DNA of 64,000 nt from an uncultured bacterium (GTDB lineage: Bacteria > Myxococcota_A > UBA9042 > PHBI01): contig CALHXW010000060.1 of the NCBI GenBank assembly GCA_938040325.1, positions 9,080 to 73,079 on the forward strand, given 5' to 3'. This document shows, one piece after another, positions 4,326 to 40,556 of the stretch (within the stretch, counting starts at the first letter, position 1; each line of letters opens with the position of its first letter). A model generated the notes under the pieces. The model had not been told where the DNA came from. It did not search any database and saw only the letters and a list, made by a program, of their open reading frames with translations. A program made the translations under genes and the position numbers.

Positions 4326-4820
4326 CGTTCCGGCCGCGCGGCGGTCCAAACGGGGGCGCGAATCGAGCTTCAGCGTCGCCGGAACACGCGGACTGAAAGC
4401 GCTGCGACGTGGCCCGCGGGGCTGACGGATCGAGGGGACGCCTGAACGCGGCTGGAGGCTGCCGATCGCGAGCGATGCAAACGTGAACCCATCGAGGCAC
4501 GGAACGCGGTGAGGGGTGCGGCACGTGCAGAAGGTTTCGGGCAGCAATTCCGCCCATGGAGTCGCTTTCCCGGACCCTGATGGTCCGCCCATCGCCACCC
4601 TCATGCCGGCCGACAGGCCTCGGCTGAGTTCGCGCGACCGCGCCCGCCAGTTGCCAGAATGTGAGTCGTGCCCGTTGTCTCCAACCAGCCGAACCTGCTA
4701 GAGTCTCAGCACTCTCGCAAAATTTGGTTGGGGAACTCGGTGCTGCGCGGCTGGTAGGCCTCGCGCAGCGCCTTCGATGGTCCGATGTCCAGCGTCGTCA
4801 AACGGTGCACTGGGGAACAC

Positions 4821-7800: not shown

Positions 7801-10800
7801 CGCGCTGCACCTGCAACGACGGCGAGCCGTGCACGGCCGATGAGTGCAGCTTCCTTGGCACCTGCTCGTTCCCGCCAACCCAGCCGGACAACCCCGATCC
7901 CGACCTCTGCGACGGCATCGACCAGGACTGCGACGGCCAGATCGACGAGGACCACGTCGACCAGAACACGACCTGTGGCACGGGCTCGAGCGAAGCCTGC
8001 ACGGCCTACGGCAACGCCCTGTGCATCAACGGCACGGTCGTCGACACCTGCGAAGAGCCCACCGGCAGCCCCGAGGTGTGCGACGGCGAGGACAACGACT
8101 GCGACGGCCAGATCGACATCTTCGACGCCAGCCTCGTCATCCCGAACTGCGAGAGCCAGCAGGGCGTGTGCAGCGGCTGCAAGAAACCTCGCAGCCTGTG
8201 CGTAGACGGCGACTGGCAAGACTGCACCGGCGCAACCTACGCAGGCTGCGCGTTCCCGCAGCAGTACCTGCCCGGCGATGCCGACTGCAACAACCTCGAC
8301 AACGACTGCGACGGCAGCACCGACGAGGGCTACCAGAGCCAGTCCACGTCGTGCGGCGTCGGCGCCTGTAGCGACACCGGTACCATCAGCTGCATCAACG
8401 GCAACGAGATCGACTCGTGCAACCCAGGCGGCCCGGGCATTGAGCTCTGCGACGGCGAGGACAACGACTGCGACGGCCTGGTCGATGCCCTCGACCCGGA
8501 CCTGGTGTTGCCGTCCTGCGAGGACCAAGACGGCGTCTGCCGCGGTGCAACCAAGCCCCCATCCTTGTGCACGAACGGCTCGTGGCAGAGCTGCACGGAC
8601 GCTGTCTACGAAGACCACAGCAACCTCTACGACAGCAGCAACGGTGGCGACATCTGCGACGGCTACGACAATGACTGTGACGGCGACCTCGACGAGGACT
8701 TCGTCGCGGAGCCAACCAACTGCGGGACGGGCGTCTGTGCCGGCACCGGCATGACGGTCTGCGTGCCCGATGTCTCCTGCGACAGCGACCCGTTCGCACC
8801 TGGCTGCCCCTGCGAGCCCTTTGACCCCGACCAAAACGGCACCGACCAGAACGGCACCGACCAGAACGGCACGTTCGACTTCCCGACGGCGCGTGGAAGC
8901 CAGTTCGGCGGTGAGTTCGGCGAGTGCGACCTGTGCGAGGTGGCGCCCAAGCACCCGCTCTGCGACCCGTGCTTCTTCATCCCGGACAATCCCAACTGCG
9001 GCGATCCGTGCGATATCGACCCTGGCAGTCCTGAGTGTTGCGAGGTGGATCTCGACCACCCAAGCTGCGACCCTTGTGAGCTAGATCCGGGGAGCCTCGA
9101 CTGCTGCGACGAGTTCCCCGACCACCCTGAGTGCGACCCGTGTGCGTTCGACCCCGAGCTCTGCGACCCGTGCTTCTTGACGGACTGCAGCGAGTGCTTC
9201 AACTCGGAGTTCGCCAATGAGGAGTGCTTCCTGTGCTGCGACTTCCCGGCCTTCGCCGGACCGTCGTTGCCGGCGTACAGCGCTCAGATCATCAACACGT
9301 GCGAGGTCGGAGAGCCGGACGGCAATGAGACCTGCGACGGCGAAGACAACGACTGCGATGGCCTGACCGACGCGGAAGATCCGGACCTCGTCATCGAAGA
9401 GTGCGAGGACCAAGACGGTGTCTGCGAGGGCGCCAACCACACCGCCAACCAGTGCATTGGCGGCGAGTGGTCGAGCTGCGGCTTCGCCAACTACATCGTC
9501 AACGACGTCAGCTACACGGGCGCACATCCCGAAGAGGGCGGACTCGACGCATGCGACGGCGTCGACAACGACTGTGACGGAGAGATCGACGAAGACTTCG
9601 AGGGCGAAGAGGTCACCTGCGGCGTGGGTGTGTGTGCTTCGACCGGCACCACGAGCTGCCAGGACGGCGAGATCGTCAACACCTGTGAGCCGGGCGACCC
9701 GTCCGCCGACGAGGTGTGCGACGGCGTCGACAACGACTGCGATGGCTTGGTCGATGGCGAAGACCCCGACCTCGTCCTCGAGGCGTGCGAGCTGCAAGAC
9801 GGTGTCTGCGACGGCAGCCGTCACACCCGTGAGCAGTGCGTCGACGGCGAGTGGAGCGAGTGCGTCTTCAGCAACTACATCACCAACAGCACCGACTACA
9901 ACGCGAACCAGGACCTCTGCGACGCGCTCGACAACGACTGCGACGGCACCGACGACGAGGACCACTCGGACCTCGAGACGAACTGCGGCGTTGGCAGCTG
10001 CGCAGCGACTGGTGTGCTCACCTGCGACGGTGGCGTGCCCACTGACAGCTGCGAGGCTGGCGAGCCTGAGTCCGATGAGGTCTGCGACGGCGAGGACAAC
10101 GACTGCGACGGGCTGACCGACGCGGCCGACCCGGACCTGGTCATCACCCAGTGCGACAACCAGGACGGCGTCTGCGACGGCTCGGTCCACACCCCCAACC
10201 AGTGCGTCAACGGCGAGTGGGCCGACTGCACCACCGTCAACTACCTCTCCAACAACCTCGCCTACGACCCCAACACCGATCTGTGTGACGGGCTCGACAA
10301 CGACTGCGACAGCGAGGACGACGAGGACTTCCCGTCGGTGGCCACAAGCTGCGGCACCGGCGCCTGCGCTGCGATGGGCGAGACGGCATGCGTCGACGGC
10401 GTTGCGGTCGACACGTGCGAGCCCGGAGACCCCGACGCGGAAGAGACGTGCGACGGCAACGACAACGACTGCGATGGGCTGCTCGACGGTGCTGACCCCG
10501 ACCTCGTGCTGGTTGAGTGTGCGCTCCAAGACGGTGTGTGCGAGGGCTCGATGCGCAACGCGACGCTCTGCGTTGGCGGCGAGTGGCAGGACTGCGGGAC
10601 GGTGGAGTACCTGGCCAACGACCTGAGCTACACCAGCGGCGTCGACGTCTGCGACGGCTCCGACAACGACTGCGACGGCGACGTCGACGAGAGCTTTGAG
10701 AGTCAGCCGACAAGCTGCGGCGTGGGCGCGTGCGCGGCCACCGGCGAGACCGTCTGTCAGGACGGCACCGAGATCGACACCTGCGTTGTTGGCGAGTCTT

Positions 10801-13800
10801 CCGGCGAGATCTGCGACGGCATCGACAATGACTGCGACGGCCTCGTCGACGGCGACGACCCGGACCTGCAGCTGGTGGAGTGTGAAGACCAAGACGGCGT
10901 GTGCAACGGCTCGATGAAGGTTGCAGCACTCTGCGTCGGCGGCGAGTGGGAAGCGTGCACCGCCACGCACTACAGCACGCACAGCGGCGACTATGACGCC
11001 AACACCGACCTCTGCGACGGGCTCGACAACGACTGCGACGAGACCAACGACGAGGACTTCGCGGCAGAAGCCACGGAGTGCGGCCAAGGTGCCTGCTTCG
11101 CCGAGGGCATGACCGCCTGCGTGCAGGGCGAGGTCATCGATACCTGCTCGCCAGGCGACGCCAGCTCCGACGAGGTGTGTGACGGCATCGACAACGACTG
11201 TGACGGCCTCGTCGACGCCCAAGACGACGACCTAGCACAGGTCCTCTGCGACGTGCAGGAGGGTGTGTGTGAAGGTGCCGAGCGTCCGACGTCGTTGTGC
11301 GTCAACGGCGAGTGGCAGGAGTGCGGTGCGGCCCAGTACGGCGGCAACTCCTTCGACTACGATCCCACGACCGACATCTGCGACGGCCTCGACAACGACT
11401 GCGACGGCGAGCTCGACGAGAGCTTCGTCGCCAGCGAGACCGACTGTGGCGTCGGTGCCTGCGCGGCCACCGGCGAGACGACCTGCGTTGACGGCGAGCT
11501 CATCGACACGTGCATGGCCGGCGAGCCGAGCGAGCTTGAGACCTGCGACGGCATCGACAACGACTGTGACGGCCTCGTCGACGCTCAGGACGACGACCTG
11601 CTGACACGCATGTGTGAGAACCAGCAGGGCGTCTGCGAGGGCTCGGAGAAGCCAGCCAGCCGCTGCGTCGACGGCGAGTGGGAGGCCTGCGAGGACTTCG
11701 ACTACGCTGGACACTCGACGGACTTCGAGCCTGACGGCGACCTGACCTGTGACGGCATCGACAACGACTGCAGCGGTGAGGCTGACGAGGACGTGCCCGA
11801 CGAGCCGAGCACCTGCGGCGTGGGTGCCTGCGAGGGCACGATGGGTGTGGTCACCTGCCAAGACGGCGAGCTGGTCGACACCTGTGACCCGGTCGCGAGC
11901 GCGGAGGCGGAGAGCTGCGACGCCATCGACAACGACTGCGACGGCGACGTCGATGAGGACTTCGAGACGCTGGGTCAGGGCTGCGATCCCAACCCCGAGG
12001 ACGACAACGTCTGTGAGTCGGGCGTCTACGTCTGTGCTGGCGACGGCTCGGGTGTCGTCTGCGAGCAGACCGAAGACATCGGTGTGGAGCGCTGCGACAA
12101 CATCGACAACGACTGTGACGGCGAGATCGATGAGGGCTGTGACGACGACGGCGACGACACGTGTGACGCCAACATGGTGTGCGTGACGGGCGTGGTCGTG
12201 GACGTCTGCCCCGGTGGCTGCGGTGACTGCAACGACGAGCCTGCCGACAACTACGAGGACGACGGGGCCAATGCCTACCCGGGCAACACCGAGATCTGCG
12301 ACAACGTCGACAACGACTGCGACGGTGAGATCGACGAGGGTTGCGATGATGACGGCGACGGCCACTGCGACGCGGCGATGGTCTGCTCCAGCGAGGTTGA
12401 GGCCATCGCACTGTGCGAGACCGGCTGCGACGACTGCGACGACGACAACGCGGACGTGAACCCCGGAGCGACCGAGACCTGCAACAGCATCGATGACAAC
12501 TGCGTCGACGGCATCGACGAGGGCTTCGGTGTCGGTGAGTCGTGCGTCGCCGGTGAAGGCGAGTGCCAGTCGATCGGCGTGCAAGTCTGCCAGGCCGATG
12601 GCGCGGGCGTGCTCTGCGACGCGGAGCTTGGCGACGAGAACGTCGAGGTTTGCGACGGCCGCGACAACGACTGCGACGGTGAAGTCGACGAAGGCTTCGA
12701 CCTCGGCGAAGCGTGCACGGTGGGTATCGGCGCATGCGAGAGCGAGCCAGGCGCGCTTGTCTGCCTGCCCGACGGCACGGCCGGCTGCGACGCAGCACCA
12801 CTGCTGCCCAAGCCCGAGACCTGCGATGCGATCGACAACGACTGCGACGGCGCCATCGACGAAGACCCAAGCGGCGAGAGCACGGTCTGTCTCGACGTGG
12901 AGACCACGGTGGACTGCCCGGCACCGGTGATCAGCGGCCACGACGTGACCATCACGTTCGCCGACGCGGTGACCGCGCAGACGAATGCCTTCGAGTGCCA
13001 GCTCGATGGCGGCCCGTGGCTGGCCTGCAACGGCGGGGTGGCGACGTACACCGACCTGCCCAACGGCCAGCACTCGTTCCTGGTGCGCGCGATCGGGCCC
13101 AACGGAGAGCCTGACCCCTCACCAGCTCTGTGCATCTGGGCCATCGACGACTCGGTGCCCGACACGGTCATCGACTTCTGCGCGGACAACCCGTCGCAGT
13201 CGAGCGACGCTACCTGTGGCTTCAGCACGCCGAGCGACGATGCAGAGCAGTTCTACTGCGTGCTCGACGCCGACACGACGCCGCCGCTGGCTGAGGACTT
13301 TGAGGCCTGTGACCCGGTCGAGACCTACGAGGGACTCGACGATGGTGAGCACACCCTGTGCGTGTACGTCGTCAACGAGGCCGGCGTCGCCGACCCCAGC
13401 CCAGCGTGTCACACGTGGGTCATCGACACGACGCTACCGGAGACGGCCATCGCGGACTGCCCGCCTGCGGCGACCTCGGCCAGCGACGTGACCGTGACGT
13501 TCTCGGATCCTGACGACAGCAGCGTCGTCAGCTTCGAGTGCCGCATCGACGACGGCGACTGGGCGCCTTGCCCGAGTGGCGAGGTGACCTATGGACCGCT
13601 CGAGGAGGGCGAGCACCGTCTCGAGGTGCGCGCGATCGACGCCAGCGGCAACGCCGACCCGATCCCCGCGTTCTGCGAGTGGGTGGTCGACGACTCCCCG
13701 CCCGACACGTTCATCCCGTTCCATCCGGAAGACCCCTCGCAGGTCGGCGACGCTGACTTCGGCTTCGCCTCCGACGAGAGCCCGGTGACGTACATGTGCG

Positions 13801-15821
13801 TGCTGGACCCGGAGACGCTGCCGCCAGCGCCCGAGGACTTCGCGCCTTGCGACGACACGGCGAGCTACGAGGGTCTCGAAGACGGACTGCACACGATGGT
13901 CGTCTACGCCATCGACGAGGCCGGCAACGCGGACCCGACCCCGGCGACGTACACCTGGGTCATCGACTCGACGGTCCCGGCGACGGAGATCACGAGCGGC
14001 CCGCCGACGCAACAGGGTCCCAACGAGCCTAACGGCTTCACGTTCCACGACCCCAACGACCCAGAAGCGGACTACTTCGAGTGCGCCGTTGACGGCGGTG
14101 AGTGGGTGCCGTGCCCTGACGGTGAGTTCTTCGCCGGCGAGCTGCCCTTGGGCCCTCATGAGCTGCTGGTGCGTACTTGCGACATCGACGGTGAGAAGCA
14201 GTGCGACCCGACCCCAGACATCTACGCCTGGGAGATTGTCGAGAGCCCCTGCCCGCTCGACGACACGGCACCGATGCTGGACTGTGCTGACGATGTGGTG
14301 CTCGAGTGCGCCGGCGGCAGCGCCGAGTTCGCGATCGATGGCATCCTGCCGAGTGCGGTCGACGCCTGTGCACCGGTCGACGTGACCTACACCGAGGTCA
14401 GCGCGACCTTCCCGATCGGGACGACCCCGCTGGTGTTCTCGGCAAGCGACGGCAACAACAACCTCGCAACCTGCGTGACGCGCGTCACCGTGGCGGACAC
14501 CCAGCCGCCCGCGATTGTGTGCCCGGAGGCCATCGAGGTGATCTCGCCCGATGACAGCTGCGGCGCGGCCATCGAGATGCCGGCGCCGCTAGCGTCCGAT
14601 GTCTGCGACGACGATGCCACGCTCTTGGTCTACAACGATGCGCCGCCTGTGTTCGGCGTCGGCGAGACGGTCGTGACGTACACGGTCATCGACGCCGCTA
14701 GCAACGTGACCTCGTGCGAGACACTGGTGACGGTCATCGACGACACGCCGCTGGTGCTCGAGTGCACGCCGACCGTTGAGGTCGTCGCCGACGCTGACGC
14801 ATGCGACTGGACCGGCGTGGTTCAGGCGCTCGCGTCCGACAACTGCGCGGTCGACGCCACGGTCATCGACGAAGAGGCGGAGTACCCGGTCGGCAACCAT
14901 CAGGTCGACTTCACGGCGATGGACGATGCCGGAAACTCCGACGCGTGCACGACGCTGCTGACGGTCATCGACGGCACACCGCCGGCAGTTGAGTGCGGCA
15001 CACTGAGCGGGACGACCGTGCCACAGACCGTCACGGCGACCGCGTCGGACGCATGCGGTGCGGAGCTCCAGCTCTTGGAGCTGTCCTGCACGGTCGTCGA
15101 CGCTGACGGCACGGAGACGGCGCTCGATGAGGCCGCCTGTCCGGTCACGGTCGACGGCGACACGATGACGATCGAAGGGTCGGTCGAAGGCGAGCTGCAC
15201 ATCAGCTACACCGCATCGGCGGTGGACCCGAGCGGCAACGTCGGCGATGCGCCCTGCGACTTTGTCTTTAGCTCCGACATCGATGCTGACGGCATCATCG
15301 ACGGCAGCGACAACTGCCCGATGACGCCGAACGCGGCGCAGGAGGACGGCGACGGCGATGGCGTGGGCGATGCCTGCGACGTGTGTCCAAGCGCCGCGGA
15401 CGCTGACCAGACCGACAGCGACGGTGACGGCACCGGCGACGCTTGCGACACGTGCGTGAACGAGGCCAACACCGAGCAGCGTGACGGCGACGGTGACGGC
15501 ATCGGCGACGTCTGCGACATCTGCCCGGCGGTCGCCGACGCAGACCAGCTCGACACGGACGGCGACGGCGTCGGCGATGCATGCCAGGACGAAGACGACG
15601 ACGGCATGATCGACACGGTCGACAACTGCCCGTTCATCGGCAACCCCGACCAGGGTGACTTCGACGGCGACGGACTGGGCAACGCCTGCGACCCGGTCGA
15701 CGACGGCGTGGTGGCCTTCGGTAGCGGCGGCTGCAGCGGCGGCAGCGCACCGGCTGGCCTGCTGTGGCTCTTGGCGGCAGCGGCGGCCCTCGGCCTGCGC
15801 CGACGGCGGTCCCAAGTCTGA
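4821..15821 (+). CDS. giant secreted mosaic adhesin-like protein (signal peptide; MopE-type CDGxDNDCDG repeat modules; HYR domains; thrombospondin type-3 repeats; MYXO-CTERM)
   Basis: A single ORF of 3666 aa starts at the ATG at 4821 (MSFRLKTALAGSLGSALVLVFALAATPDAHA = Sec signal; GGGGA 5 nt upstream). It has about 26 copies of C-D-G-x-D-N-D-C-D-G-x-x-D-E, then 4 roughly 115-aa beta-sandwich-like repeats and HYR-like repeats. Classic TSP3 repeats follow (D.DGDG.GDACD.CP…NxxQxDxDGDG). The C-terminus is …GCSGGSAPAGLLWLLAAAAALGLRRRR (MYXO-CTERM pattern). Confidence 0.85.
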   Translation: MSFRLKTALAGSLGSALVLVFALAATPDAHAACDDPPTLLFQLKDAPTTWTCGTSQSFKVNYSVSAGELAPAQIRVTLPVGMYYQSASGNLPQFSNGSCTGNWTTTGQVCTFSTSSLDGSAGAVAGQFSVTARADCNYFDEGNTNVTIPGVLDGTYEGTEGEACDVDPDVASSDDTVIVNNVIQNTYSLITYSGFESRWISNADPQCYEMPDGNTYRIAVVRSYFNRTGGNENWGNPSATYEMPTIPGAIWLGPQNSSTVNITAPTGLDTGDPLPASVTLSVTRSEAQFSYLRYYYFYFAVPCAGAPAETGLTTNVTVTEGGVANTDAVNATWNSPNFTNPGCPTDGNRYCSGYCDDNPTASVGTSHQNVVSPSTVSLAAFHHYSQTQTGSSYSDELYHVQVVSSELNVNYLQALWIGSNATCGPTFYRCNIPDKVDELVTKAEFLASYKDSASCTVFYSTYYPPATETNTHLFAYGSELDCEGTEIFPVLNAFWKGQSFPDGFQGWSINTNPYSRLWVNYSSPGCSQVDDALNFSSAYTRTHCPESTELSGENTLPKTVQGQNSFYSNTGGLPATVQCGETKDVWFYNNNYYSYNPRDGIVVNPRWDLDIPSNASLFGCEWINTNGTGCSAPTALNVTEVVNADGTKTLRVEPKSEDDGDYHLVRHGGLCGAAPCDPVGAGNIRCKAFFDCANQYENNEAVNFCNEADADNQAYATPLRRCQTTRVDVPIQKRATISPICSDEDTPLEIPEGTPGARFTASNSGGAVLNQVIIENTLPRVGDGSNTEIDSYYYAHVISGDQTGSCTVECYINDWAACPTDATAFDVTKVRMLCDELNPYEAQTLDLFVQFTAADGGTSNGKDVIATAVLLDDNLLPAEVEAITPTIVGRCPGIFQVCVFFDEDGDGVKDANETFMANWPFTVTDQLDAGNNFEDIVPAGGNYEVTVAAGDYDFAYTNPLNENAYTLDTWEITADVPTSFTITPGFDTKITIPARCTCNDGEPCTADECSFLGTCSFPPTQPDNPDPDLCDGIDQDCDGQIDEDHVDQNTTCGTGSSEACTAYGNALCINGTVVDTCEEPTGSPEVCDGEDNDCDGQIDIFDASLVIPNCESQQGVCSGCKKPRSLCVDGDWQDCTGATYAGCAFPQQYLPGDADCNNLDNDCDGSTDEGYQSQSTSCGVGACSDTGTISCINGNEIDSCNPGGPGIELCDGEDNDCDGLVDALDPDLVLPSCEDQDGVCRGATKPPSLCTNGSWQSCTDAVYEDHSNLYDSSNGGDICDGYDNDCDGDLDEDFVAEPTNCGTGVCAGTGMTVCVPDVSCDSDPFAPGCPCEPFDPDQNGTDQNGTDQNGTFDFPTARGSQFGGEFGECDLCEVAPKHPLCDPCFFIPDNPNCGDPCDIDPGSPECCEVDLDHPSCDPCELDPGSLDCCDEFPDHPECDPCAFDPELCDPCFLTDCSECFNSEFANEECFLCCDFPAFAGPSLPAYSAQIINTCEVGEPDGNETCDGEDNDCDGLTDAEDPDLVIEECEDQDGVCEGANHTANQCIGGEWSSCGFANYIVNDVSYTGAHPEEGGLDACDGVDNDCDGEIDEDFEGEEVTCGVGVCASTGTTSCQDGEIVNTCEPGDPSADEVCDGVDNDCDGLVDGEDPDLVLEACELQDGVCDGSRHTREQCVDGEWSECVFSNYITNSTDYNANQDLCDALDNDCDGTDDEDHSDLETNCGVGSCAATGVLTCDGGVPTDSCEAGEPESDEVCDGEDNDCDGLTDAADPDLVITQCDNQDGVCDGSVHTPNQCVNGEWADCTTVNYLSNNLAYDPNTDLCDGLDNDCDSEDDEDFPSVATSCGTGACAAMGETACVDGVAVDTCEPGDPDAEETCDGNDNDCDGLLDGADPDLVLVECALQDGVCEGSMRNATLCVGGEWQDCGTVEYLANDLSYTSGVDVCDGSDNDCDGDVDESFESQPTSCGVGACAATGETVCQDGTEIDTCVVGESSGEICDGIDNDCDGLVDGDDPDLQLVECEDQDGVCNGSMKVAALCVGGEWEACTATHYSTHSGDYDANTDLCDGLDNDCDETNDEDFAAEATECGQGACFAEGMTACVQGEVIDTCSPGDASSDEVCDGIDNDCDGLVDAQDDDLAQVLCDVQEGVCEGAERPTSLCVNGEWQECGAAQYGGNSFDYDPTTDICDGLDNDCDGELDESFVASETDCGVGACAATGETTCVDGELIDTCMAGEPSELETCDGIDNDCDGLVDAQDDDLLTRMCENQQGVCEGSEKPASRCVDGEWEACEDFDYAGHSTDFEPDGDLTCDGIDNDCSGEADEDVPDEPSTCGVGACEGTMGVVTCQDGELVDTCDPVASAEAESCDAIDNDCDGDVDEDFETLGQGCDPNPEDDNVCESGVYVCAGDGSGVVCEQTEDIGVERCDNIDNDCDGEIDEGCDDDGDDTCDANMVCVTGVVVDVCPGGCGDCNDEPADNYEDDGANAYPGNTEICDNVDNDCDGEIDEGCDDDGDGHCDAAMVCSSEVEAIALCETGCDDCDDDNADVNPGATETCNSIDDNCVDGIDEGFGVGESCVAGEGECQSIGVQVCQADGAGVLCDAELGDENVEVCDGRDNDCDGEVDEGFDLGEACTVGIGACESEPGALVCLPDGTAGCDAAPLLPKPETCDAIDNDCDGAIDEDPSGESTVCLDVETTVDCPAPVISGHDVTITFADAVTAQTNAFECQLDGGPWLACNGGVATYTDLPNGQHSFLVRAIGPNGEPDPSPALCIWAIDDSVPDTVIDFCADNPSQSSDATCGFSTPSDDAEQFYCVLDADTTPPLAEDFEACDPVETYEGLDDGEHTLCVYVVNEAGVADPSPACHTWVIDTTLPETAIADCPPAATSASDVTVTFSDPDDSSVVSFECRIDDGDWAPCPSGEVTYGPLEEGEHRLEVRAIDASGNADPIPAFCEWVVDDSPPDTFIPFHPEDPSQVGDADFGFASDESPVTYMCVLDPETLPPAPEDFAPCDDTASYEGLEDGLHTMVVYAIDEAGNADPTPATYTWVIDSTVPATEITSGPPTQQGPNEPNGFTFHDPNDPEADYFECAVDGGEWVPCPDGEFFAGELPLGPHELLVRTCDIDGEKQCDPTPDIYAWEIVESPCPLDDTAPMLDCADDVVLECAGGSAEFAIDGILPSAVDACAPVDVTYTEVSATFPIGTTPLVFSASDGNNNLATCVTRVTVADTQPPAIVCPEAIEVISPDDSCGAAIEMPAPLASDVCDDDATLLVYNDAPPVFGVGETVVTYTVIDAASNVTSCETLVTVIDDTPLVLECTPTVEVVADADACDWTGVVQALASDNCAVDATVIDEEAEYPVGNHQVDFTAMDDAGNSDACTTLLTVIDGTPPAVECGTLSGTTVPQTVTATASDACGAELQLLELSCTVVDADGTETALDEAACPVTVDGDTMTIEGSVEGELHISYTASAVDPSGNVGDAPCDFVFSSDIDADGIIDGSDNCPMTPNAAQEDGDGDGVGDACDVCPSAADADQTDSDGDGTGDACDTCVNEANTEQRDGDGDGIGDVCDICPAVADADQLDTDGDGVGDACQDEDDDGMIDTVDNCPFIGNPDQGDFDGDGLGNACDPVDDGVVAFGSGGCSGGSAPAGLLWLLAAAAALGLRRRRSQV
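7905..12875 (+). repeat. array of about 13 bipartite modules, each with two CDGxDNDCDG putative metal-binding (MopE-type) motifs and a Cys-rich insert
   Basis: The repeated protein pattern is CDGxDNDCDGxxDE…CGxGxC…CDGxDNDCDGLxDxxDPDLVxxxCExQDGVC…GEWxxC…Y. Copies are diverged at the DNA level. Limits are approximate. Confidence 0.6.
14245..15705 (+). other. HYR (hyalin-repeat) domains (about 14245-15200) followed by thrombospondin type-3 calcium-binding repeats (about 15275-15705) within the giant ORF
   Basis: HYR pattern D..PP.I.CP…SDNC.V…G.H.V.FTA.D.AGN…C...V.V.D appears 4-5 times. TSP3 pattern D.D.DG..D..DNCP...N..Q.D.DGDG.GDACD appears about 4 times. Confidence 0.6.
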
Positions 15822-20602: not shown

Positions 20603-23521
20603 CTACTGGAGCAGGTTGTTGATGGCGCCAAACGCCTGCGACTGCGAGCCGCTTGTGTGGACGATCGTGCCCGTCTCATCGAGCACAATATGCTCATCTT
20701 TGGTGCCGGTGCCGGTGTGGCCGGGGAACACGCCGTTTGCGTCAAAGAGCACAGGCATCGTCAGCCCGAAGTTGTCGCGGACAGCCGCGCAATAAGCCGC
20801 ATCGGGTAGGCTCCCGAAGTTTCCGGTGTTGGTGATCACAAGGTACATCTCGAAGCTGGGGTCGAGCGCTAGGAAGTCTGCATAATCATCGGACGCCGAA
20901 CTGGCGTGCCCTTGGCAAGACGGTCACCACCCGGCGTACGAGAACATATACGACGCCTTCTTCTGACAGAGCTCATGGATGGTGTAGGGCGTTCCGTCGC
21001 AGTCGGTCAGCGTCAGGTCTGCCAAGCGGTCGCCCACGCCGGTCCCGTAAGGCGCCGCGGGCGGACAGACCATCGGAGGCGGTCCGCAGGTGCCAGCAGC
21101 CATGTCGCAGACGTCTCCACCAGCACACACCCCACACGTCGAGCCGCAGCCGTCGGGACCGCAGTCCTTGCCGGCGCAGTCGGGCACGCACTCGCACTGA
21201 CCCGCACCACTGCAGCTCTCGTTGACTGCACAGCTCCCGCAGCTCCCGCCGCAGCCGTCGCCGCCACAGTCTTTGCCAGCACAGTCAGGCACGCAGGCGC
21301 ACTGCCCGCTGCCATCACACGTCTCGCCAGCGCCACAGCCTGGCCCGCAGCTCCCCCCACAGCTGTCGGGCCCGCAGCTCTTGCCGGCACAATCAGCGAC
21401 ACACTCACACTGGCCGCCTGCGCCACAGGCCGAGCCAGCGGCACACGCGCCGCACGTGCCACCACAGCCGTCGCTTCCACACATCTTGCCCACACAGTCG
21501 GGGACACAGGCACACTGACCGCCACCATCACAGGCCTCGCCAGCAGCGCACATGCCGCAGCTTCCGCCGCAGCCATCGCCGCCGCAGTCCTTGCCTGCGC
21601 ACGCGGCCACACACTCACACTGACCCGCGCCGCTGCAGACGTCCTGCGGCCCACTGCAGCCAGGCGGACAGCTCCCGCCGCAGCCGTCGCCGCCGCAGAC
21701 CTTGCCGGCACAGTCAGCAACGCACTCGCACTGACCGGCGCCGCTGCAGACCTCTTGGGCACCCGAGCAGCCAGGCCCGCACGTCCCACCGCAGCCATCG
21801 CCGCCGCAGACCTTGCCGGCACAGTCGGCCACGCACTCGCACTGGCCTCCAGTGCTGCAGACCTCTTGAGCCCCGCTGCAGCCAGGACCGCAGCTCCCGC
21901 CGCAACCATTGCTCCCGCAGACCTTGCCGACACAGTCCGCCACGCACTCGCACACGCCAGCGGCGCTGCAGACTTCCTGCGTACCGCTGCAGCCTGCGCC
22001 GCAGGTCCCTCCACAGCCGTCGCTGCCACAGACCTTGCCGGCACAGTCGGGTGCGCAGACGCAGCTCCCGGTGTCGCATGCGGTCCCTGGCTGACACGAC
22101 CCGCAGCTCCCGCCGCAGCCGTCGTCACCACACGCCTTGCCGACGCAGTCGGGAGCACACTCGCAGACGCCAGCGCCACTGCATACCTCGCCCGCTGGAC
22201 ACGTCGGTCCGCACGTCCCGCCGCAGCCGTCCGGCCCGCAGCTCTTGCCGCTGCAGTCGGGCGTGCACGTCGAGACACAGGCCCCAGCGCTCGTGCAGAC
22301 CATCCCAGCGCTGCAGCCCGCGCCGCAGGTTCCGCCACAACCATCGTCACCGCAGACCTTACCGACACAGTCCGGCACGCACTCGCACACGCCCGCAACG
22401 CTGCACTGGTCTCCAGCGGCGCAGGTCCCGCAGCTCCCGCCGCAACCATCCGTCCCGCACGCCTTGCCGTCGCAGCTTGCGCAGCACGGGACGTTGCACA
22501 TGCCGGTCGCGTCGCACAGGCTCGGGTCATCACCGAAGCAGCCGGTACAGCCGCCACAGCTTCCGCCGCAGCCGTCGTCACCACAGAGCTTGCCGGCGCA
22601 GTCCGGAGCGCACGCACAGCTCCCGCCGGTACAGGTGTCAGGCGCCGTGCAGCTGCCGCACACCCCGCCACATCCATCGTCGCCGCAGACCTTGCCAGCG
22701 CAGTCCGGCACACAAGCGCACGCCCCGCCCACGCACTGCTCACCGCCCTCGCAGCTTCCGCAGGTACCGCCACAACCGTCGTCTCCGCAGGTCGCCGTCA
22801 GGCAGTCCGGAGCACACGCACAGCTCCCGGCATCGCAGACGCTCCCGCTCGAGCACGTGCCGCAAACCCCGCCGCAGCCGTCCGGCCCACACGCTTTCCC
22901 GTCACAGTCCGGCACGCACGCGCAGGCTCCGCCAACGCACACGTCCCCACCCGCGCAGCTGCCACAGCTCCCGCCGCAGCCATCATCGCCGCACGAGGCG
23001 ACGCTACAATCGGGCGCGCACGTGCACGCTCCGTCACTGCAGCCAAAGCCCGCACCACAAGCGCCGCAGCTCCCGCCGCAGCCGTCGTCACCGCAGTCGT
23101 TGCCAAGGCAGTCCGGACAGCAGACCGACTCGCAGGCACCGCCGACGCAGAGTCCTGGGTCAGGACCAAAGCACCCGTCGCACTCCCCGCAGAGCCCGCC
23201 ACACCCATCATCACCGCAGGTCTTGCCCTCGCAGTCTGGCACACACACGGGCGGCGTTGTATCGGCGCTTGTGTCCGCGGTCGCGTCTTCGACGGTATCG
23301 TCGAGCACATCGACCGGCTCGACAGCCGTGTCCACAAGCTCCGCCGTCGTGTCAGCAACCGCCGTGTCCACCGGCTCCGCCGTATCGACAGCAACATCGC
23401 CCGAGCCGGTATCCAGCACGGTATCAACGCTACCGGCGGTGTCTTCAGCGGAATCGGTCGGCGCCTCGTCTCCGCAAGCCGCCGTCGCAATCATCACCGC
23501 AATCAGCACGAGTTTTCTCAT
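20603..23521 (-). CDS. lipoprotein with about 25 tandem 8-Cys repeat modules and a C-terminal TlpA/redoxin-like domain interrupted by an in-frame TGA at the first position of the CxxC motif (candidate selenocysteine, UxxC)
   Basis: The N-terminus is MRKLVLIAVMIATAAC-GD (lipobox), followed by an acidic D/T/A-rich linker. The repeat is C.C.PDC.GK.CG.DGCGG.CG.C..G..C..G.C, about 25 copies. Reading 20924-23521 then gives …DLTLTDCDGTPYTIHELCQKKASYMFSYAGW-TGA-PSCQGHASS… It continues in the same frame through ORF 20603-20848 (…MYLVITNTGNF…PVLFDANG…IVLDETGTIVH…). Together this reconstitutes a complete thioredoxin-fold redoxin domain. Confidence 0.55.
20891..20926 (-). other. in-frame UGA (20924-20926) plus downstream mRNA hairpin (about 20891-20911): candidate bacterial SECIS
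   Basis: On the mRNA the sequence reads UGA-CCGUCUUGCCAA-GGGCACGCC-AGUUC-GGCGUCC. A 5-6 bp GC stem with an A-U pair, a C-C mismatch and a G-C pair below carries an apical loop containing G-U. It begins 12 nt after the UGA, the spacing expected for bacterial SECIS elements. Confidence 0.35.
21060..23250 (-). repeat. about 25 tandem copies of a roughly 93-96-nt unit encoding an 8-cysteine module (C.C.PDC.GK.CG.DGCGG.CG.C..G..C..G.C)
   Basis: The repeat is visible in the protein, and as long P/Q/S-rich shadow ORFs on the opposite strand (20906-23590, 22051-23820). Limits are approximate. Confidence 0.8.
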
Positions 23522-23603: not shown

Positions 23604-23800
23604 ACGCCTACCCATACCCATACCCCTACGCATACGCATACGCATACGCATACGCCTACCCATACGCCTACGCATACGCATACGCCTACGCGTACCCACC
23701 ACCCGTACCCATACCCATACGCCTACGCCAACGCCCACCCCTACGCCTACCCATACCCCTACCCATACGCATACCCGGCCCCCCTACCCCCAACCCCTAC
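23604..23800. repeat. degenerate hexanucleotide microsatellite (CATACG / CCTACG / CATACC)n, about 30 units
   Basis: The run reads …cctacccatacccatacccctacgcatacgcatacgcatacgcatacgcctacccatacgcctacgcatacgc… The spurious + ORF 23547-23903 translating as PTHTHTPTHT…PYPYAYPY is produced by this repeat. It is intergenic, upstream of the minus-strand lipoprotein start at 23521. Confidence 0.8.
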
Positions 23801-23879
23801 CCAGCAACCGCCGGAGCTGAGCCTGTTACCCATGTCCCCGGTTCGAAAACCGCGTAAGCGTAGGGCCCGGCGAAACGCG

Positions 23880-23914
23880 AAACGCCCCGCTCAAGGGACT
23901 TGAGCGGGGCGTTT
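23880..23914 (-). terminator. strong hairpin (candidate terminator) downstream of the coiled-coil lipoprotein gene
   Basis: The sequence is aaacgccccgctcaag-gga-cttgagcggggcgttt, a perfect 16-bp inverted repeat. It lies about 25 nt after the stop at 23940. Only a weak U-tract follows on the minus strand (UUUCGCGUUUCG). Confidence 0.5.
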
Positions 23915-27300: not shown

Positions 27301-27413
27301 TGGCCGCCGCCGCCGGCTCGCCCTGAGTCTCACGTGCGGATTTGGCGATCCCCACGAAACCATCCAGCTGGTATGTTGGGGGCGGTAGGCTGCCTACTCG
27401 CCCGAGAGGAAAC

Positions 27414-29957
27414 ATGAACTCGCCCGCTACCTGCAACAGACACGTTCGCTCCCTGGCGATAGCGGTGGCTGTCACTGGAATGCTCGCCGGCTGCGAAGTG
27501 CCCGATGAGCCAGGCCCGTGCGACGGCCTCGACGAGGGCGCCGCCTGTGATGACGGCGATCCGTGCACCGACGGGGCGACCTGTTCGGCCGGCGTCTGTG
27601 GTGACGCGGTCCCGATCGACGGCTCAGGCTGCCTGCCGGTCGATGACTGCGCCTCGGCAAGCTGCGGCAACGGGACCTGCGTCGACGGCGACAATAGCTT
27701 CAGCTGCCTCTGCGACGAGGGCTGGACCGGCGACGACTGCGCTGTCGACATCGACGATTGCGCGGACGACCCGTGCGGCTTCGGGCAGTGCAGCGACCAA
27801 GTCGGCGGCTACCTTTGCGCCTGCGACCCAGGCTATGCGGGTGACGACTGCACCATCGACGTCGACGAGTGCGCCGACTCACCATGCGAAAACGGGAGCT
27901 GCGAGGACGACGTGGGGAGCTACGTCTGCACCTGCGATGCTGGCTGGATGGGCGACGACTGCGACGTGGCGGTCGATGGGTGCGCCGGCATCTCATGTGT
28001 CAACGGCACCTGCGTCACCAGCGCTGGCGCCGGCACGTGTGAGTGCGACCAGGGCTGGATGGGCGATGACTGCGGCACCGACATCGACGAGTGCGACGAT
28101 GATCCTGCTGTGTGCGACGTCAACGCGGTCTGCGCCAACACTGCTGGCGGGTTCTTGTGCGACTGCCTGCCGGGCTTCGAGGGGGACGGACAGAGCTGCG
28201 AGGACGTCGACGACTGCGCGGAGAGCCCGTGTGCCAACGGGACCTGCATCGACGCGGTCGACGGGTACACATGCGAGTGCGACGCGGGCTGGACGGGCAG
28301 CAACTGTGATGTCGACGTCGACGAGTGCACGCCCGACCCGTGCGCCTTTGGCCAGTGCAACAACCTCGCGGGCAGCTACCAGTGCACCTGCGACCCAGGC
28401 TGGGAGGGCATCAACTGTGATGTGGACATCGACGAGTGTGGCGCCGATCCGTGTGTGAACGGCGTGTGCGGCGACGCCCAGGGCGCCTACGTCTGCACCT
28501 GTGACCCAGGCTGGTCGGGCGTCGACTGTGACATCAACGTGGACGACTGCGTGGCCGCGGCGTGCGGAAACGGTGTCTGCGTGGATGGCGTCGACGGCTA
28601 CACCTGCAGCTGCAACCCTGGCTGGCAGGGTGCCGCGTGCGACGGCAACATCGACGACTGCGTTGGCAGTAGCTGCCTCAACGGCACGTGCGTCGACGGG
28701 ATCGAGAGCTACAGCTGCAGCTGTGATGCAGGCTGGACCGGCGACACATGCGCGACCAACGCCGACGACTGCGCGGCCAGTCCGTGCGCCAATGGCACAT
28801 GTCTCGACGGGGTCGGCAACTACACCTGCACCTGCGACGCGGGCTGGACCGGCGACAACTGCGATGTGGACATCGACGAGTGCGCCGCTGCGCCGTGTGC
28901 AAACGGAACCTGCATGGACGGCGTCGATAGCTACACCTGTGACTGTCAGCCGGGCTGGACGGGCGATGACTGCGACATCGACGTCGACGACTGCGCGTCT
29001 GCCCCTTGCCAAAACGGCGGGCAGTGCGTCGACCAAGTCAACGCCTACACCTGCATCTGCCCAGACGGCTGGATTGGCGACGACTGCGAGATCGACCGCA
29101 ACGAGTGCGGCCCTGCCCCGTGTGCCGCCGGCTTGTGCATCGACGGGATCAACAGCTACACGTGCGAGTGCCTCGATGGTTGGACCGGCACCGACTGCGA
29201 TGTGGACATCGACGAGTGCGCCAGCGGGACCGCCGGCTGCGACCCGGTCGCGTCGTGCATCAACACCGATGGAAGCTTCACCTGCGTCTGCCCGGCGGGC
29301 TATCACCCAACCCTCGACGGGTGCGTGCGGATCACGGCGTTCGTCTCGGGTCAGTCTTACTCGACGACCGAGCTCGGCGGTGTCGGAGGCGCAGACATGC
29401 GCTGTCAGCAAGAGGCTGCAGCAGCGGACCTCGTTGAGCCGACGAAGTGGCACGCCCTGCTCAGCAACTCTCGACGCTCAGCGCGACAACGGCACCTCAT
29501 CATGTTCCCGCTTGTGATGCCGGACGGAGGCGTGGTCTCACAGACGGAGGCCGGGCTGTGGGACGGCGACATCGACACCGACTTCGACACCAAGCCCAAT
29601 GGACAGGCGGTGTTTGACGGCGTCTGGACGGGCACGCGCGCCGACGGCTCGCGTGTCGTGATGCAGGGCGCCCAGCTGACGCACTGCGAGGACTGGACCG
29701 CGACGTCGGGGGCCACCAACTTGGGGCGCACGTTCGAGTCGAGCTACAAGTGGGCGGACCTCTACCAAGGGTCGACCCCGAGCAATGCCTGCACCAACAG
29801 CAGCCGAATCTACTGCGTTGCAGGCACCCTCTGTCCTGTTGGCGAGGGCGCTGTCGACGGCGCGTGCCAGCCGATTGCAGGGTATTGCGAGAGCACCGGC
29901 GACTGCACGAACGGGGAAGTCTGCGGCGCCAACCACCGCTGCGAGGTGCCGATCTGA
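27414..29957 (+). CDS. lipoprotein with about 16 (mostly calcium-binding) EGF-like domains and a C-terminal endostatin-like domain
   Basis: Start is the ATG at 27414 (GAGAGGA Shine-Dalgarno; …VAVTGMLAGC-EV lipobox). Repeats D[IV]D[ED]C…PC.NG.C.D…Y.C.C..GW.G..C occur about 16 times. The C-terminal 200 aa (…LGGVGGADMRCQQEAAAADL…WHALLSNS…VWTGTRADGSR…HCEDWTATSGATNLGRTFE…RIYCVA) align with human endostatin motifs (GADFQCFQQARAVGL…FRAFLSS…VWHGSDPNGRR…YCETWRTEAPSATGQASSL…IVLC). Confidence 0.8.
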   Translation: MNSPATCNRHVRSLAIAVAVTGMLAGCEVPDEPGPCDGLDEGAACDDGDPCTDGATCSAGVCGDAVPIDGSGCLPVDDCASASCGNGTCVDGDNSFSCLCDEGWTGDDCAVDIDDCADDPCGFGQCSDQVGGYLCACDPGYAGDDCTIDVDECADSPCENGSCEDDVGSYVCTCDAGWMGDDCDVAVDGCAGISCVNGTCVTSAGAGTCECDQGWMGDDCGTDIDECDDDPAVCDVNAVCANTAGGFLCDCLPGFEGDGQSCEDVDDCAESPCANGTCIDAVDGYTCECDAGWTGSNCDVDVDECTPDPCAFGQCNNLAGSYQCTCDPGWEGINCDVDIDECGADPCVNGVCGDAQGAYVCTCDPGWSGVDCDINVDDCVAAACGNGVCVDGVDGYTCSCNPGWQGAACDGNIDDCVGSSCLNGTCVDGIESYSCSCDAGWTGDTCATNADDCAASPCANGTCLDGVGNYTCTCDAGWTGDNCDVDIDECAAAPCANGTCMDGVDSYTCDCQPGWTGDDCDIDVDDCASAPCQNGGQCVDQVNAYTCICPDGWIGDDCEIDRNECGPAPCAAGLCIDGINSYTCECLDGWTGTDCDVDIDECASGTAGCDPVASCINTDGSFTCVCPAGYHPTLDGCVRITAFVSGQSYSTTELGGVGGADMRCQQEAAAADLVEPTKWHALLSNSRRSARQRHLIMFPLVMPDGGVVSQTEAGLWDGDIDTDFDTKPNGQAVFDGVWTGTRADGSRVVMQGAQLTHCEDWTATSGATNLGRTFESSYKWADLYQGSTPSNACTNSSRIYCVAGTLCPVGEGAVDGACQPIAGYCESTGDCTNGEVCGANHRCEVPI

Positions 29958-32389: not shown

Positions 32390-34129
32390 ATGAGAACACG
32401 ACTTTGGATAGTGGCTGTGGCCGCGCTGGCTATGATGGCCTGTGGCGATGACGACTCGGGCAACGGCGGCGACAGCGGCAACGACTGGAACACGGCGGAC
32501 GCTACCAGCAGCTCGGATGCGGGTGGTACCTCCGACACCCAGCCGCCGCCCAGCGACACCAGCAGCGGCGGCGGCTGGGACACGGCCAGCGCGGACACCG
32601 CTGCAAGCTCTGATGCCGCCAGCTCTGACACCGCGGGCCCCGATCCCGGCACCCCGCCGCCCAACACCCAGGTGAACCTTGGTGGCGCCCAAGACTTCGG
32701 GTTCTTCCGCGCGGTTGTTGAGTCCGGCCAGGTGCCTAACCCCGAGGACATGGACGCCGGCGGCTTCTTCGCTGAGCACCACACCCCGCTGCCCGACCCT
32801 GTTTGTGGCGAAAAGATCTGCCTCCAGGCGATGCTCGGGCAGATGGGCAACCTCATGACGGGCGCCAACTGCACGCTCATTCAGGTGGGCCTGAACTCGA
32901 CCACCGTCGTTGACCCCAACGACCGCCCGCCGCTCAACCTTGTCGTCGTCGTGGATCTGTCCGGCTCGATGAACAACGGCAACAAGATCGACTTCGTCCG
33001 CGACGGGCTTCACAAGCTCGTCAACGAGCTCTCAGACGTAGACCATCTATCGATTGTCACCTATGCGACGACGGTCGACGTTCCCTTCGATATGCAGGCC
33101 GTCAAGAACAACCGCAACGAGCTCCACGACCTGGTCAGCAGCTTGAGCACGGGCGGCTCGACCAACCTCCACGATGGCCTCGAAGAGGGCTTTCAGGTCG
33201 CCATGGACGCCTACGACTCGGGTCGTCAGAACCGCGTCATCTTGCTCTCGGACGGCGTCCCGACGGTCGGCATTACCAACACCGACGAGATCCTTGAGAT
33301 GTCGGCTGGCTACAACTCTGACGGCATCGGCCTGACCACCGTTGGGCTCGGCACGGACTTCAGCGTCGACGTCATGCGCGGCCTGGCTGAGCAAGCCGAT
33401 GGCAACTTCTACTTCCTTGAGAACAGCGCCGCGGTCGACGAGGTCTTCACCGAAGAGCTCGCCTACTTCACCGTGCCCGTCGCGTTCGACGTCCGCTTGG
33501 ACGTCCACGCCGGCAATCACTACACCTTTGGCGCCGCCCACGGCTCGCACCTGTTCAAGACCAACGAGGAGGGCGGCACGCTGAGCGTCCCGAGCGTGTT
33601 CTTGGCCCATCGCCTTGCCCACGACGACGTCACCGACGGTGACGGTCGACGCGGCGGCGGCTCGGCGCTGCTCCTTGAGCTCATGCCGATGGCCGATGAC
33701 GGTAGCAACCTCACGGTCGGCCATGTCGCGACCGTCAGCCTCGAGTTCCGCGAGCCTGGCAGCAACGAGATCGTCACCGAAGAGATCACCATCGACTACC
33801 CGCGCGCGCCGTGGGAGACGCTCGTCACTGGCTTCTTCGACAACGCCATCGTCACGAAGAGCTTCGTGATGCTCAACATCTACGCATCGCTTGAGGAGGC
33901 CTGTCGCCTGCACCACGACGGCCAACCGCTCGAGGCGATGAACCTGCTGCTGCGCGTCATCGCGGCCGCATCCGACTACGAAGACGACGCCAACGACGGC
34001 GAGGGTGACATCGACATCCAGCTCGACATTGAGCTGATGGAGGACCTGGTCGGCGTCATCGAAGACGTGTCCGGAATCAACGAAGAGCCCGAGCCGATCA
34101 TCCCGGAAGATCCGTGGCCTAACGACTAG
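32390..34129 (+). CDS. vWA-domain lipoprotein with acidic Ser/Thr/Asp-rich linker
   Basis: A lipobox is present (LAMMAC-GDDD). The MIDAS motif LNLVVVVDLSGSMNNGNK is followed by …ILLSDGVPT…, a classic von Willebrand A fold signature. Confidence 0.7.
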   Translation: MRTRLWIVAVAALAMMACGDDDSGNGGDSGNDWNTADATSSSDAGGTSDTQPPPSDTSSGGGWDTASADTAASSDAASSDTAGPDPGTPPPNTQVNLGGAQDFGFFRAVVESGQVPNPEDMDAGGFFAEHHTPLPDPVCGEKICLQAMLGQMGNLMTGANCTLIQVGLNSTTVVDPNDRPPLNLVVVVDLSGSMNNGNKIDFVRDGLHKLVNELSDVDHLSIVTYATTVDVPFDMQAVKNNRNELHDLVSSLSTGGSTNLHDGLEEGFQVAMDAYDSGRQNRVILLSDGVPTVGITNTDEILEMSAGYNSDGIGLTTVGLGTDFSVDVMRGLAEQADGNFYFLENSAAVDEVFTEELAYFTVPVAFDVRLDVHAGNHYTFGAAHGSHLFKTNEEGGTLSVPSVFLAHRLAHDDVTDGDGRRGGGSALLLELMPMADDGSNLTVGHVATVSLEFREPGSNEIVTEEITIDYPRAPWETLVTGFFDNAIVTKSFVMLNIYASLEEACRLHHDGQPLEAMNLLLRVIAAASDYEDDANDGEGDIDIQLDIELMEDLVGVIEDVSGINEEPEPIIPEDPWPND

Positions 34130-40071: not shown

Positions 40072-40556
40072 CAGCTTGCGATGGGCCTCGTCGCGTCGGT
40101 GCCTTATCTCCGACATGAGCAGTCTTCAACGTGGGCGCCCGGTTCCGTGCACGCCGCGCGACACGTCTTCTCTGCGCCTCGAGCTGGCAGGTCAGAGTCG
40201 ACCACGAGACGCGAATGCCGCTCGCTTCTGGGGCAAAGCACGGAGACCCGACGTTGCTACAGGTCAGCCTCGACGCCGAACGTCCCGTCGCGAACGCAGA
40301 CGCACAGCCACGGTCGCGAACGTCATCAAAAGCAAGTGCTTACGATCGATCTTTTTGCCGCTGGCGTGGGCAAGCAGCACGAGCGACACCCTTTCATGCG
40401 TCTTACAACGGCCATTCGATGCGTGGTCTCGTCGACCCAGCCGTTGACTGCTTCGTCGCCCTATTCCGGATTGCCAAAGACGGCTCCTGAGCCGTTTTGC
40501 GGACTTCGCGTGATGTGCTACCACCGAGGCCGTCTCAACCAGCACGAGGGAATACC

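Follow-up and report, generated by a model that had tools for sequence, protein, structure and literature searches.

Introduction

Where does a protein end when its gene encodes a lipoprotein signal, twenty tandem cysteine-rich modules and then a codon that standard gene calling takes for a stop, and what is such a protein for? These questions are raised by a gene on the minus strand (positions 20603-23521) of a 64,000-nucleotide stretch of DNA, hereafter the window, from an uncultured bacterium (GTDB lineage Bacteria; Myxococcota_A; UBA9042; PHBI01; NCBI GenBank assembly GCA_938040325.1, contig CALHXW010000060.1, positions 9,080 to 73,079 of the forward strand). The standard open reading frame (ORF) call runs from 23521 down to 20924 and gives a product of 865 amino acids, spanning the interval at 21060-23250 that an earlier inspection of the letters alone (the sequence-only reading) had described as a tandem array of 8-cysteine modules in a lipoprotein. 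The in-frame TGA at 20924 and the C-terminal redoxin domain that it interrupts were overlooked in that reading, and they alter the identity of the protein: past the TGA the frame continues for 106 more codons to a TAG, and readthrough yields a product of 972 amino acids. The gene probably encodes an exported lipoprotein composed of a lipid anchor, an acidic flexible tether, a rod of 20 disulfide-bonded modules and a C-terminal thiol-disulfide oxidoreductase that contains selenocysteine (Sec, U).

A redoxin domain that continues across an in-frame UGA

The codon that follows the residues ...SYAGW is TGA (20926-20924), after which P-S-C-Q-G-H is read in the same frame. The resulting W-U-P-S-C corresponds to the CxxC motif of the thioredoxin fold with its first Cys replaced. 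When Sec was written as Cys, Pfam scans across the TGA (residues 829-957) returned Redoxin (PF08534, E=2.1e-7) and AhpC-TSA (PF00578, E=8.5e-7), both above the gathering score. Redoxin attained 31.3 bits with the full protein and 36.3 bits with the domain alone (cut-off 26.6), and AhpC-TSA attained 29.4 and 34.7 bits, respectively (cut-off 26). Homologues of this domain exist in a Cys form. One of them, P0121, carries YAGWCPPC and is 47% identical, with its Cys aligned to the TGA codon; the part after the TGA is about 45% identical at the protein level. In addition, three small lipoproteins, namely L004 (from a Nannocystaceae metagenome-assembled genome (MAG)), L005 (from a Myxococcales MAG) and L006, contain YAGWCP(P/S)C with Cys at the TGA position.

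The TGA itself is present at the same codon in six independent metagenomic relatives (L001, L089, L098, L036, L047 and L018). Downstream of it the frame is open and conserved; five of these relatives reach a stop after about 109 codons, and the L001 contig ends after 41. A metagenome scan for Y-A-G-W-TGA-P-x-C retrieved 106 stretches, five of which were true homologues by phmmer. A further sequence, L029 (Ga0307384_10145297, match at 125, minus strand), has YAGW-TGA-PHC and 209 Cys-rich in-frame codons, preceded by what looks like a signal peptide; phmmer detects no homology with the window redoxin, and the sequence may represent another Sec-containing thioredoxin-like protein. Elsewhere TGA serves as an ordinary stop, both in the gene upstream of the Cys-repeat gene and where the L089 and L098 genes truly end, and the event at residue 866 is therefore a local recoding rather than the consequence of a variant genetic code.

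An 865-residue repeat protein with a dead redoxin stub and a decaying downstream frame would result if the TGA were a genuine stop or a disabling mutation, which is the product that standard gene calling gives; a database homologue (P0122) is also called as ending in ...YAGW, and no Sec machinery is visible in the window. Nevertheless, seven independent sequences hold TGA exactly at the codon of the catalytic Cys, the codons beyond it are open and conserved at the protein level, and a hairpin occupies the position of a selenocysteine insertion sequence (SECIS) in all seven. Such an explanation is extremely unlikely because a pseudogene would not show conservation of this kind. Redoxin-family and Prx-like selenoproteins with a UxxC motif form a recognised class (PMC13188914), and the continuity of the redoxin domain over the UGA, the Sec/Cys correspondence and the retention of UGA, frame and hairpin together identify residue 866 as a predicted selenocysteine.

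A SECIS-like hairpin downstream of the UGA

The hairpin in the window consists of 7 base pairs with one bulge and a 5-nt apical loop (AGUUC, the second base being G) that lies 21 nt from the UGA. Hairpins in L001, L089 and L098 are variants of the same type with A/GGUUC loops, and those in L036, L047 and L018 belong to a different type (GGCCUUC-GGU-GAAGGUC). Each hairpin was folded separately, and across the window and its relatives the z-scores range from -1.9 to -2.6, the loop begins 18-21 nt past the UGA, and a G lies within the first two loop positions. The bacterial SECIS (bSECIS) model comprises an apical loop of 3-9 nt, a G in the first two loop positions and a UGA-loop distance of 16-37 nt (quoted in PMC13188914); the hairpins of the window and of all six TGA relatives conform to it. 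No Rfam family corresponds to the post-UGA region.

Relatives of the redoxin domain and their tethers

Among PDB sequences, the redoxin domain matches Etrx1 of S. pneumoniae best (4HQS, E=6e-4), with ResA, MPT53 and DsbF next in rank; NCBIfam contributed weak matches to ResA, StoA and DsbE. A structure model of the Cys homologue P0121, built from a 3-row alignment, was poor, with a predicted local distance difference test (pLDDT) score of 44, and was discarded. Four cysteines in and before the domain (C819, C841, C852 and C911) are conserved in the redoxin family and probably form two structural disulfides; with these included, no cysteine of the mature protein is left without a possible partner. 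Whether or not they carry repeats, homologues keep the C-P-P/x-x-G-P-x-G motif of the interdomain linker ahead of the redoxin domain.

Three kinds of tether carry this domain. In L089 and L098, 8-Cys repeats lie directly upstream of the Sec-redoxin, as in the window. L047 has a lipoprotein signal followed by a low-complexity Gly/Thr/Ser-rich linker of about 190 residues (GTGG repeats) without Cys repeats, and L018 and L036 likewise have a Gly/Thr/Ser-rich tether of about 190 residues after the lipobox in place of the Cys repeats. In L004-L006 only a short linker precedes the redoxin. The sequence upstream of the redoxin in L001, which lies on a 618-nt contig at 0.76x coverage, is unrelated. 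No synteny is conserved between the window and L089 or L098. Because the redoxin sits behind short, Gly-rich and Cys-repeat tethers, the tether is interchangeable: redoxin and repeat are independent modules, and the repeat behaves as an interchangeable spacer.

The fusion of array and Sec-redoxin nonetheless recurs in three divergent sequences (the window, L089 and L098), and the distal redoxin is otherwise without an obvious electron source. Both observations would suit a redox-active stalk in which the array disulfides act as a relay or buffer, in which the redoxin is a cis-acting foldase that forms and repairs its own 82 disulfides, or in which the array conducts reducing equivalents out to a distal active site. 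However, the array occurs thousands of times without a redoxin, the redoxin occurs without the array, and the array cysteines are invariant and strictly paired, as is expected of structural bonds. An active part for the array disulfides is accordingly given very little credence, at about the same level as a genuine stop at the TGA, and the array is treated below as a spacer.

Anatomy of the cysteine-rich array

When unit boundaries were set by anchoring on the CGxDGCGG core, 20 units of 34-42 residues (mostly 34-37) were counted, joined by 1-residue junctions. The tandem 8-Cys repeat reported by the sequence-only reading is thus real, but its dimensions had to be revised: about 25 units of about 31 residues had been proposed, with a DNA repeat of 93-96 nt, where the actual DNA period is 102-126 nt (Tandem Repeats Finder (TRF) periods of 105 and 111), and roughly 200 Cys had been estimated, where the array contains 164 and the whole protein 170. 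These 164 Cys account for 22.7% of the 724 array residues, 16 units having 8 Cys and 4 units having 9. The consensus given previously was essentially right, since the 20-unit alignment reads CVPDCxGKxCGxDGCGGSCGxCxxGxxCxxxGxC with eight invariant Cys, spaced as C-x3-C-x4-C-x4-C-x3-C-x2/3-C-x5-9-C-x4-6-C. Conservation outside Cys and Gly is confined to a single Pro, Lys and Asp, and the remaining positions are free. The array contains no His, no Arg and 3 aromatic residues, is 26% Gly, and is strongly acidic (67 Asp and 20 Glu against 17 Lys and no Arg).

At the nucleotide level, pairwise identity among units averages 65% and spans 56-83%. Divergence is by far the greatest at third codon positions, as illustrated by units 3 and 5, which are identical at fractions of 0.88, 0.85 and 0.29 of codon positions 1, 2 and 3, respectively. 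The suggestion that the array is old and its DNA diverged is borne out by these values, units 12-15 (76-83% nucleotide identity) being the only younger sub-block.

The segments upstream of the array also agree with the sequence-only reading. The assignment as a lipoprotein is supported by a signal peptide with an A-A-C lipobox, in which Cys16 is predicted to be the lipid-modified N-terminus of the mature protein; comparable lipobox signals (LLAGC, VAGC and IVAC) occur in members of the repeat family, and the Cys-type redoxin homologues are small lipoproteins too. The acidic D/T/A/V-rich linker has the composition described (Table 1), and its coding DNA holds an internal 36-nt repeat. An acidic linker after the lipobox is typical of repeat-family homologues as well.

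Probable disulfide pairing in the array

The cysteines were followed through the wider repeat family. None of the eight Cys columns falls below 99.2% Cys across 2,609 units, and exactly 8 Cys are present in 96.7% of 1,869 contiguous family units. Units with an odd Cys count tend to neighbour one another (two in succession in 9 cases, four in one case), and so do the four 9-Cys units of the window, where unit 1 adjoins unit 2 and unit 7 adjoins unit 8. In 11 units at least two canonical Cys are missing, and all 11 retain exactly 6; C1 and C4 have been lost jointly five times, in four proteins. Since such parity and paired loss fit disulfide partners, whereas thiolate clusters would not predict them, the 164 array Cys appear to form about 82 disulfides. 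The array is probably a passive structural spacer.

Three consecutive units (17-19), modelled by AlphaFold2 from 91 aligned rows of triple units, yielded a confident fold (pLDDT 95.5, predicted template modelling (pTM) score 0.66) that contains short beta-hairpins only. A Foldseek comparison of this three-unit model with the PDB found no significant neighbour, the best matches being modules of the EGF and LDLR types at E=0.29-0.9. By analogy with tandem EGF-like rods, the length of the stalk is perhaps tens of nanometres.

The sequence-only reading had left the choice between a disulfide-knotted and a metal-binding protein open, and a metallothionein-like function deserves consideration, in which 164 reduced thiols would form thiolate clusters in the envelope and so sequester Cu, Zn or Cd. 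The Cys content of 22.7%, the C-x-C and C-x-x-C motifs, the lack of a hydrophobic core in the module and the conserved Asp in every unit are all compatible with this, and extracellular metal chemistry may exist in the organism, since the window encodes a giant protein with the 'putative metal-binding' MopE motif PF11617. Yet the protein is exported and lipid-anchored and would therefore sit in an oxidising compartment, the even-Cys rule is strict, Cys are lost in pairs, and His is absent. Moreover, neither metallothionein nor other metal-binding hidden Markov models (HMMs) match, thousands of unrelated enzymes contain the module as a linker, and AlphaFold2 predicts a fixed fold without a ligand. 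Metal sequestration is thus considered very unlikely: export, parity, paired loss, the missing His and the pLDDT of 95.5 all favour the disulfide half of the earlier proposal, and the metallothionein-like half is left with Cys density only.

An uncatalogued family of 8-Cys repeats

The unit matched no HMM of Pfam or NCBIfam, even at E<=10, and nothing meaningful among PDB sequences; a trypsin-3 match (E=0.02) was rejected as compositional. A literature search for the repeat motif strings found nothing relevant. The view that the unit is distinct from EGF, from the Myxococcus cysteine-rich repeat and from the CDGxDNDCDG motif is upheld by the lack of matches to the corresponding HMMs, while two positive controls from the window, a genuine EGF-repeat protein (E=5e-70) and a MopE-motif protein (E=5e-59), scored strongly.

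In contrast to the empty Pfam result, a 20-unit profile scored against 1.84 billion cluster representatives (clusters at 50% identity) matched 6,463 of them at E<=1e-3 and 2,670 at E<=1e-10. The copies per protein range from a few up to 46 matched stretches in this profile search, and a whole-protein search matched more than 3,000 proteins, a figure that is a lower bound. The pattern CxPxCxGKxCGxDGCGGxCGxC is shared by 2,609 units from 228 proteins, and all 20 window units fit it. Most of the proteins matched by the profile come from metagenomes; where organisms are named, they are Myxococcota, Deltaproteobacteria or Myxococcales MAGs. A typical member consists of a lipoprotein signal and acidic linker, the array, and then unrelated domains. 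Among the best 120 whole-protein matches, PAD_porph/agmatine deiminase is the partner in about 22, and other partners include LTD (lamin-tail), PPC, FGE-sulfatase, Lcl_C, CAP, peptidases, Cu2-monooxygenase and VWA. Dozens of other domains accompany the repeat in all, and no redoxin partner was found in the best 230 repeat-family proteins. The 'CGxDGCGG' 8-Cys unit therefore defines a very large uncatalogued family of extracellular multidomain proteins, mostly from Myxococcota.

About half of the best 120 family members have no recognisable Pfam domain, which raises the possibility that the repeats are the functional part and the enzyme is secondary, the array being an adhesin, a matrix- or prey-binding fibre, or a polyvalent ligand surface like those of the LDL receptor and EGF proteins. 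The weak Foldseek neighbours, which are LDLR/LRP2 and EGF ligand-binding arrays, and the strongly acidic character of the array point in the same direction. A binding surface is difficult to reconcile, however, with units in which only one Pro, Lys and Asp recur beyond Cys and Gly and the other residues vary freely, with the wide range of copy numbers, and with orthologous redoxins that work with a Gly-rich or short tether. This alternative is regarded as unlikely, and a spacer that carries the catalytic domain is preferred.

Gene features and genomic context

The features of the gene are collected in Table 1. The gene is seemingly monocistronic: the lipoprotein gene upstream is followed by a terminator-like hairpin, and the next gene downstream is in convergent orientation.

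Table 1. Features of the Cys-repeat selenoprotein gene, in window coordinates
Feature	Residues	Coordinates	Strand	Basis or remark
Signal peptide and lipobox, MRKLVLIAVMIATAAC	1-16	23474-23521	-	Basic n-region, hydrophobic h-region, A-A-C lipobox
Acidic low-complexity D/T/A/V-rich tether	17-92 (76 aa)	23246-23473	-	Composition D16, T14, A12, V12, E6, P5
Twenty tandem 8-Cys units	93-813	21083-23245	-	Putative disulfide-bonded rod or stalk
Pro-rich interdomain linker, PPPMVCPPAAPYGTG, with conserved Cys819	814-828	21038-21082	-	C-P-P/x-x-G-P-x-G motif kept in homologues
Redoxin/AhpC-TSA domain, predicted thioredoxin fold, W-U866-P-S-C869	829-972	20606-21037	-	Pfam and Cys homologues; split by the TGA in standard calls
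In-frame UGA, predicted to be read as selenocysteine	866	20924-20926	-	Aligns to first Cys of YAGWCPxC; TGA kept in six relatives
SECIS-like hairpin, GG(c)ACGCC-AGUUC-GGCGUCC		20891-20910	-	Starts 13 nt past the UGA; dG -10.6 kcal/mol, z = -2.2
TAG, true stop of the 972-aa protein		20603-20605	-	Reading frame

The intergenic space that separates the terminator-like hairpin (23876-23913) from the Cys-repeat gene is filled by about 200 nt of imperfect hexamer repeats (23604-23802), which are G-rich on the minus strand (GGTAKG/GCGTAT; TRF periods 6, 12 and 18; about 28-32 copies). This tract could be a promoter-region element, an element of the G-quadruplex type or a contingency repeat.

The window as a whole is 60-70% G+C and rich in giant exported Cys-rich proteins. 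On the plus strand, a 3,678-residue ORF at 4785-15821 contains PF11617 'Cu-binding_MopE' (E=5e-59) together with a HYR domain and is the source of the CDGxDNDCDG motif; an 871-residue protein at 27342-29957 has at least 14 eukaryote-type EGF-like and calcium-binding EGF domains (hEGF E=5e-70, EGF_CA E=4e-49); and a 2,933-residue ORF at 40497-49298, with a marginal DUF11 match only, is giant and essentially unannotated. Also on the plus strand are a ChrR-type cupin anti-sigma domain protein (25-705, E=1e-68), a CotH kinase-like protein (2388-4325, E=9e-39) and a cluster at 56646-60720 that encodes a 4Fe-4S dicluster protein, an NrfD-like membrane subunit and a molybdopterin oxidoreductase (polysulfide/tetrathionate/formate-dehydrogenase-like), in whose molybdopterin catalytic subunit no in-frame TGA is evident. 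An ABC-F protein of the window has no relative above 55% identity, and its named matches are Myxococcota, which suggests that the MAG is Myxococcota-like and branches deeply. ARAGORN placed a tRNA-Ser(CGA) at 32468-32550 on the minus strand, overlapping the start of a VWA-domain ORF (32390-34129), and Rfam at the gathering threshold detected no tRNA anywhere in the window.

Discussion

The product of this gene appears to be a lipid-anchored selenoenzyme of the envelope or cell surface, mounted on a disulfide-stapled rod. In the proposed mechanism, Sec would be inserted at the in-frame UGA with help from the hairpin just downstream and would serve as the nucleophile of the W-U-P-S-C motif, while the rod formed by the array would keep the catalytic domain away from the membrane. 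Through a selenenylsulfide intermediate, the catalytic domain may reduce or isomerise disulfides, and possibly act on peroxides, in envelope or extracellular substrates. Its activity would then be akin to that of the ResA/TlpA/CcmG/Etrx class of anchored extracytoplasmic thioredoxins.

Several observations weigh against this proposal. With regard to recoding, the 64-kb window contains no selA, selB, selD or tRNA-Sec (ARAGORN reported the tRNA-Ser only, and the neighbouring genes were covered by Pfam scans), and the capacity of the organism to insert Sec is presumed. When 76 nt of context were folded instead of the hairpin alone, stability was unexceptional (z = -0.36), and RNAalifold placed the two hairpin types out of register on six post-UGA segments, so that covariation gave no usable score. 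With regard to the redox route, neither an electron donor gene (CcdA/DsbD) nor a substrate gene such as Msr is adjacent, and the inner membrane could not easily supply reducing equivalents to an enzyme held at the far end of a long, rigid stalk. As for the stalk itself, the best Foldseek match has an E-value of only 0.29, so the role as a spacer rests on architecture, without a characterised homologue, and the disulfide connectivity and rod length are inferred. Finally, the near-invariant Asp of CGxDGCGG could bind Ca2+ or another ion, which would give the array some metal role.

Among characterised enzymes, those of the TlpA/ResA/CcmG(DsbE)/Etrx class have in common with the window protein its predicted Redoxin/AhpC-TSA fold and the W-C/U-x-x-C motif. 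Etrx1 is a surface-exposed lipoprotein of the thioredoxin family in which electrons pass from CcdA to Etrx1 and on to MsrAB2 (PMC3914529). The window protein, of low sequence identity to Etrx1, differs from it in several respects: Sec replaces the nucleophilic Cys, the distance from anchor to domain is about 800 residues (tether plus stalk) where Etrx1 has a short linker, neither a ccdA/dsbD nor an msrAB partner lies near the gene, and two extra conserved Cys pairs are found in and before the domain. The UxxC Redoxin and Prx-like selenoproteins (PMC13188914) have in common with it the same Pfam families, the UxxC motif, Cys/Sec pairing among homologues and a SECIS-type hairpin after the UGA. 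Compared by description, however, those proteins are single-domain, whereas here the domain ends a 972-residue lipoprotein behind a 20-unit array.

The array also has several counterparts. EGF-like and laminin-type EGF arrays are likewise built from small coreless disulfide modules with a beta-hairpin, arranged head to tail in extended form, but the present unit has eight Cys with a spacing of its own, and no HMM of the EGF family (PF00008 and relatives) matches it at E<=10. The Myxococcus cysteine-rich repeat (TIGR02232/DUF4215/PF13948) and the MopE motif (PF11617) are also Cys-rich tandem repeats in giant exported proteins of Myxococcota; their motif and spacing differ, and neither the TIGR02232 nor the PF11617 HMM matches the window repeat protein. 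CysRRep (Cx6-9Cx5-7Cx8-11Cx7-8CC), described as a marker of horizontal transfer in eukaryotes with some Myxococcota matches (bioRxiv 10.64898/2026.06.07.730663), resembles the unit as a Cys-rich repeat placed ahead of enzyme domains in secreted proteins; it is set apart, by its published spacing, through its six Cys, wider intervals and terminal CC. The array resembles metallothioneins in its Cys fraction of about 23% and its C-x-C/C-x-x-C motifs, but metallothioneins are typically small and cytosolic, in contrast to an exported, modular protein of about 100 kDa with Cys-pair parity, a predicted fixed fold and no metallothionein HMM match.

What is new is an undescribed repeat family used as a stalk, in conserved fusion with a known type of UxxC selenoprotein domain. 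It is highly improbable, in our estimation, that the fusion is functional in a stronger sense, with the Sec oxidoreductase held tens of nanometres out and the rod of about 82 disulfides joining the chemistry as a relay or reservoir, or as a self-repaired structure; if true, this would be a long-range extracellular redox device of an undescribed kind. In a weaker version of this reading, the 8-Cys unit would represent a novel disulfide-rich fold without a solved relative.

For the protein itself, readthrough of the UGA shifts the description from a 'Cys-rich lipoprotein of unknown function' to a 'tethered extracytoplasmic selenoenzyme', and the gene offers a concrete case of a selenoprotein truncated by standard pipelines. 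The distal position of the active site raises the question of its recycling route, and the three tether types constitute a natural experiment on the reach from the membrane that an envelope oxidoreductase needs. The unit would also offer a new minimal disulfide-stapled rod for protein engineering. For the wider family, an entry for the 8-Cys repeat in domain catalogues would give thousands of giant surface proteins of Myxococcota an annotation for their 'empty' middle.

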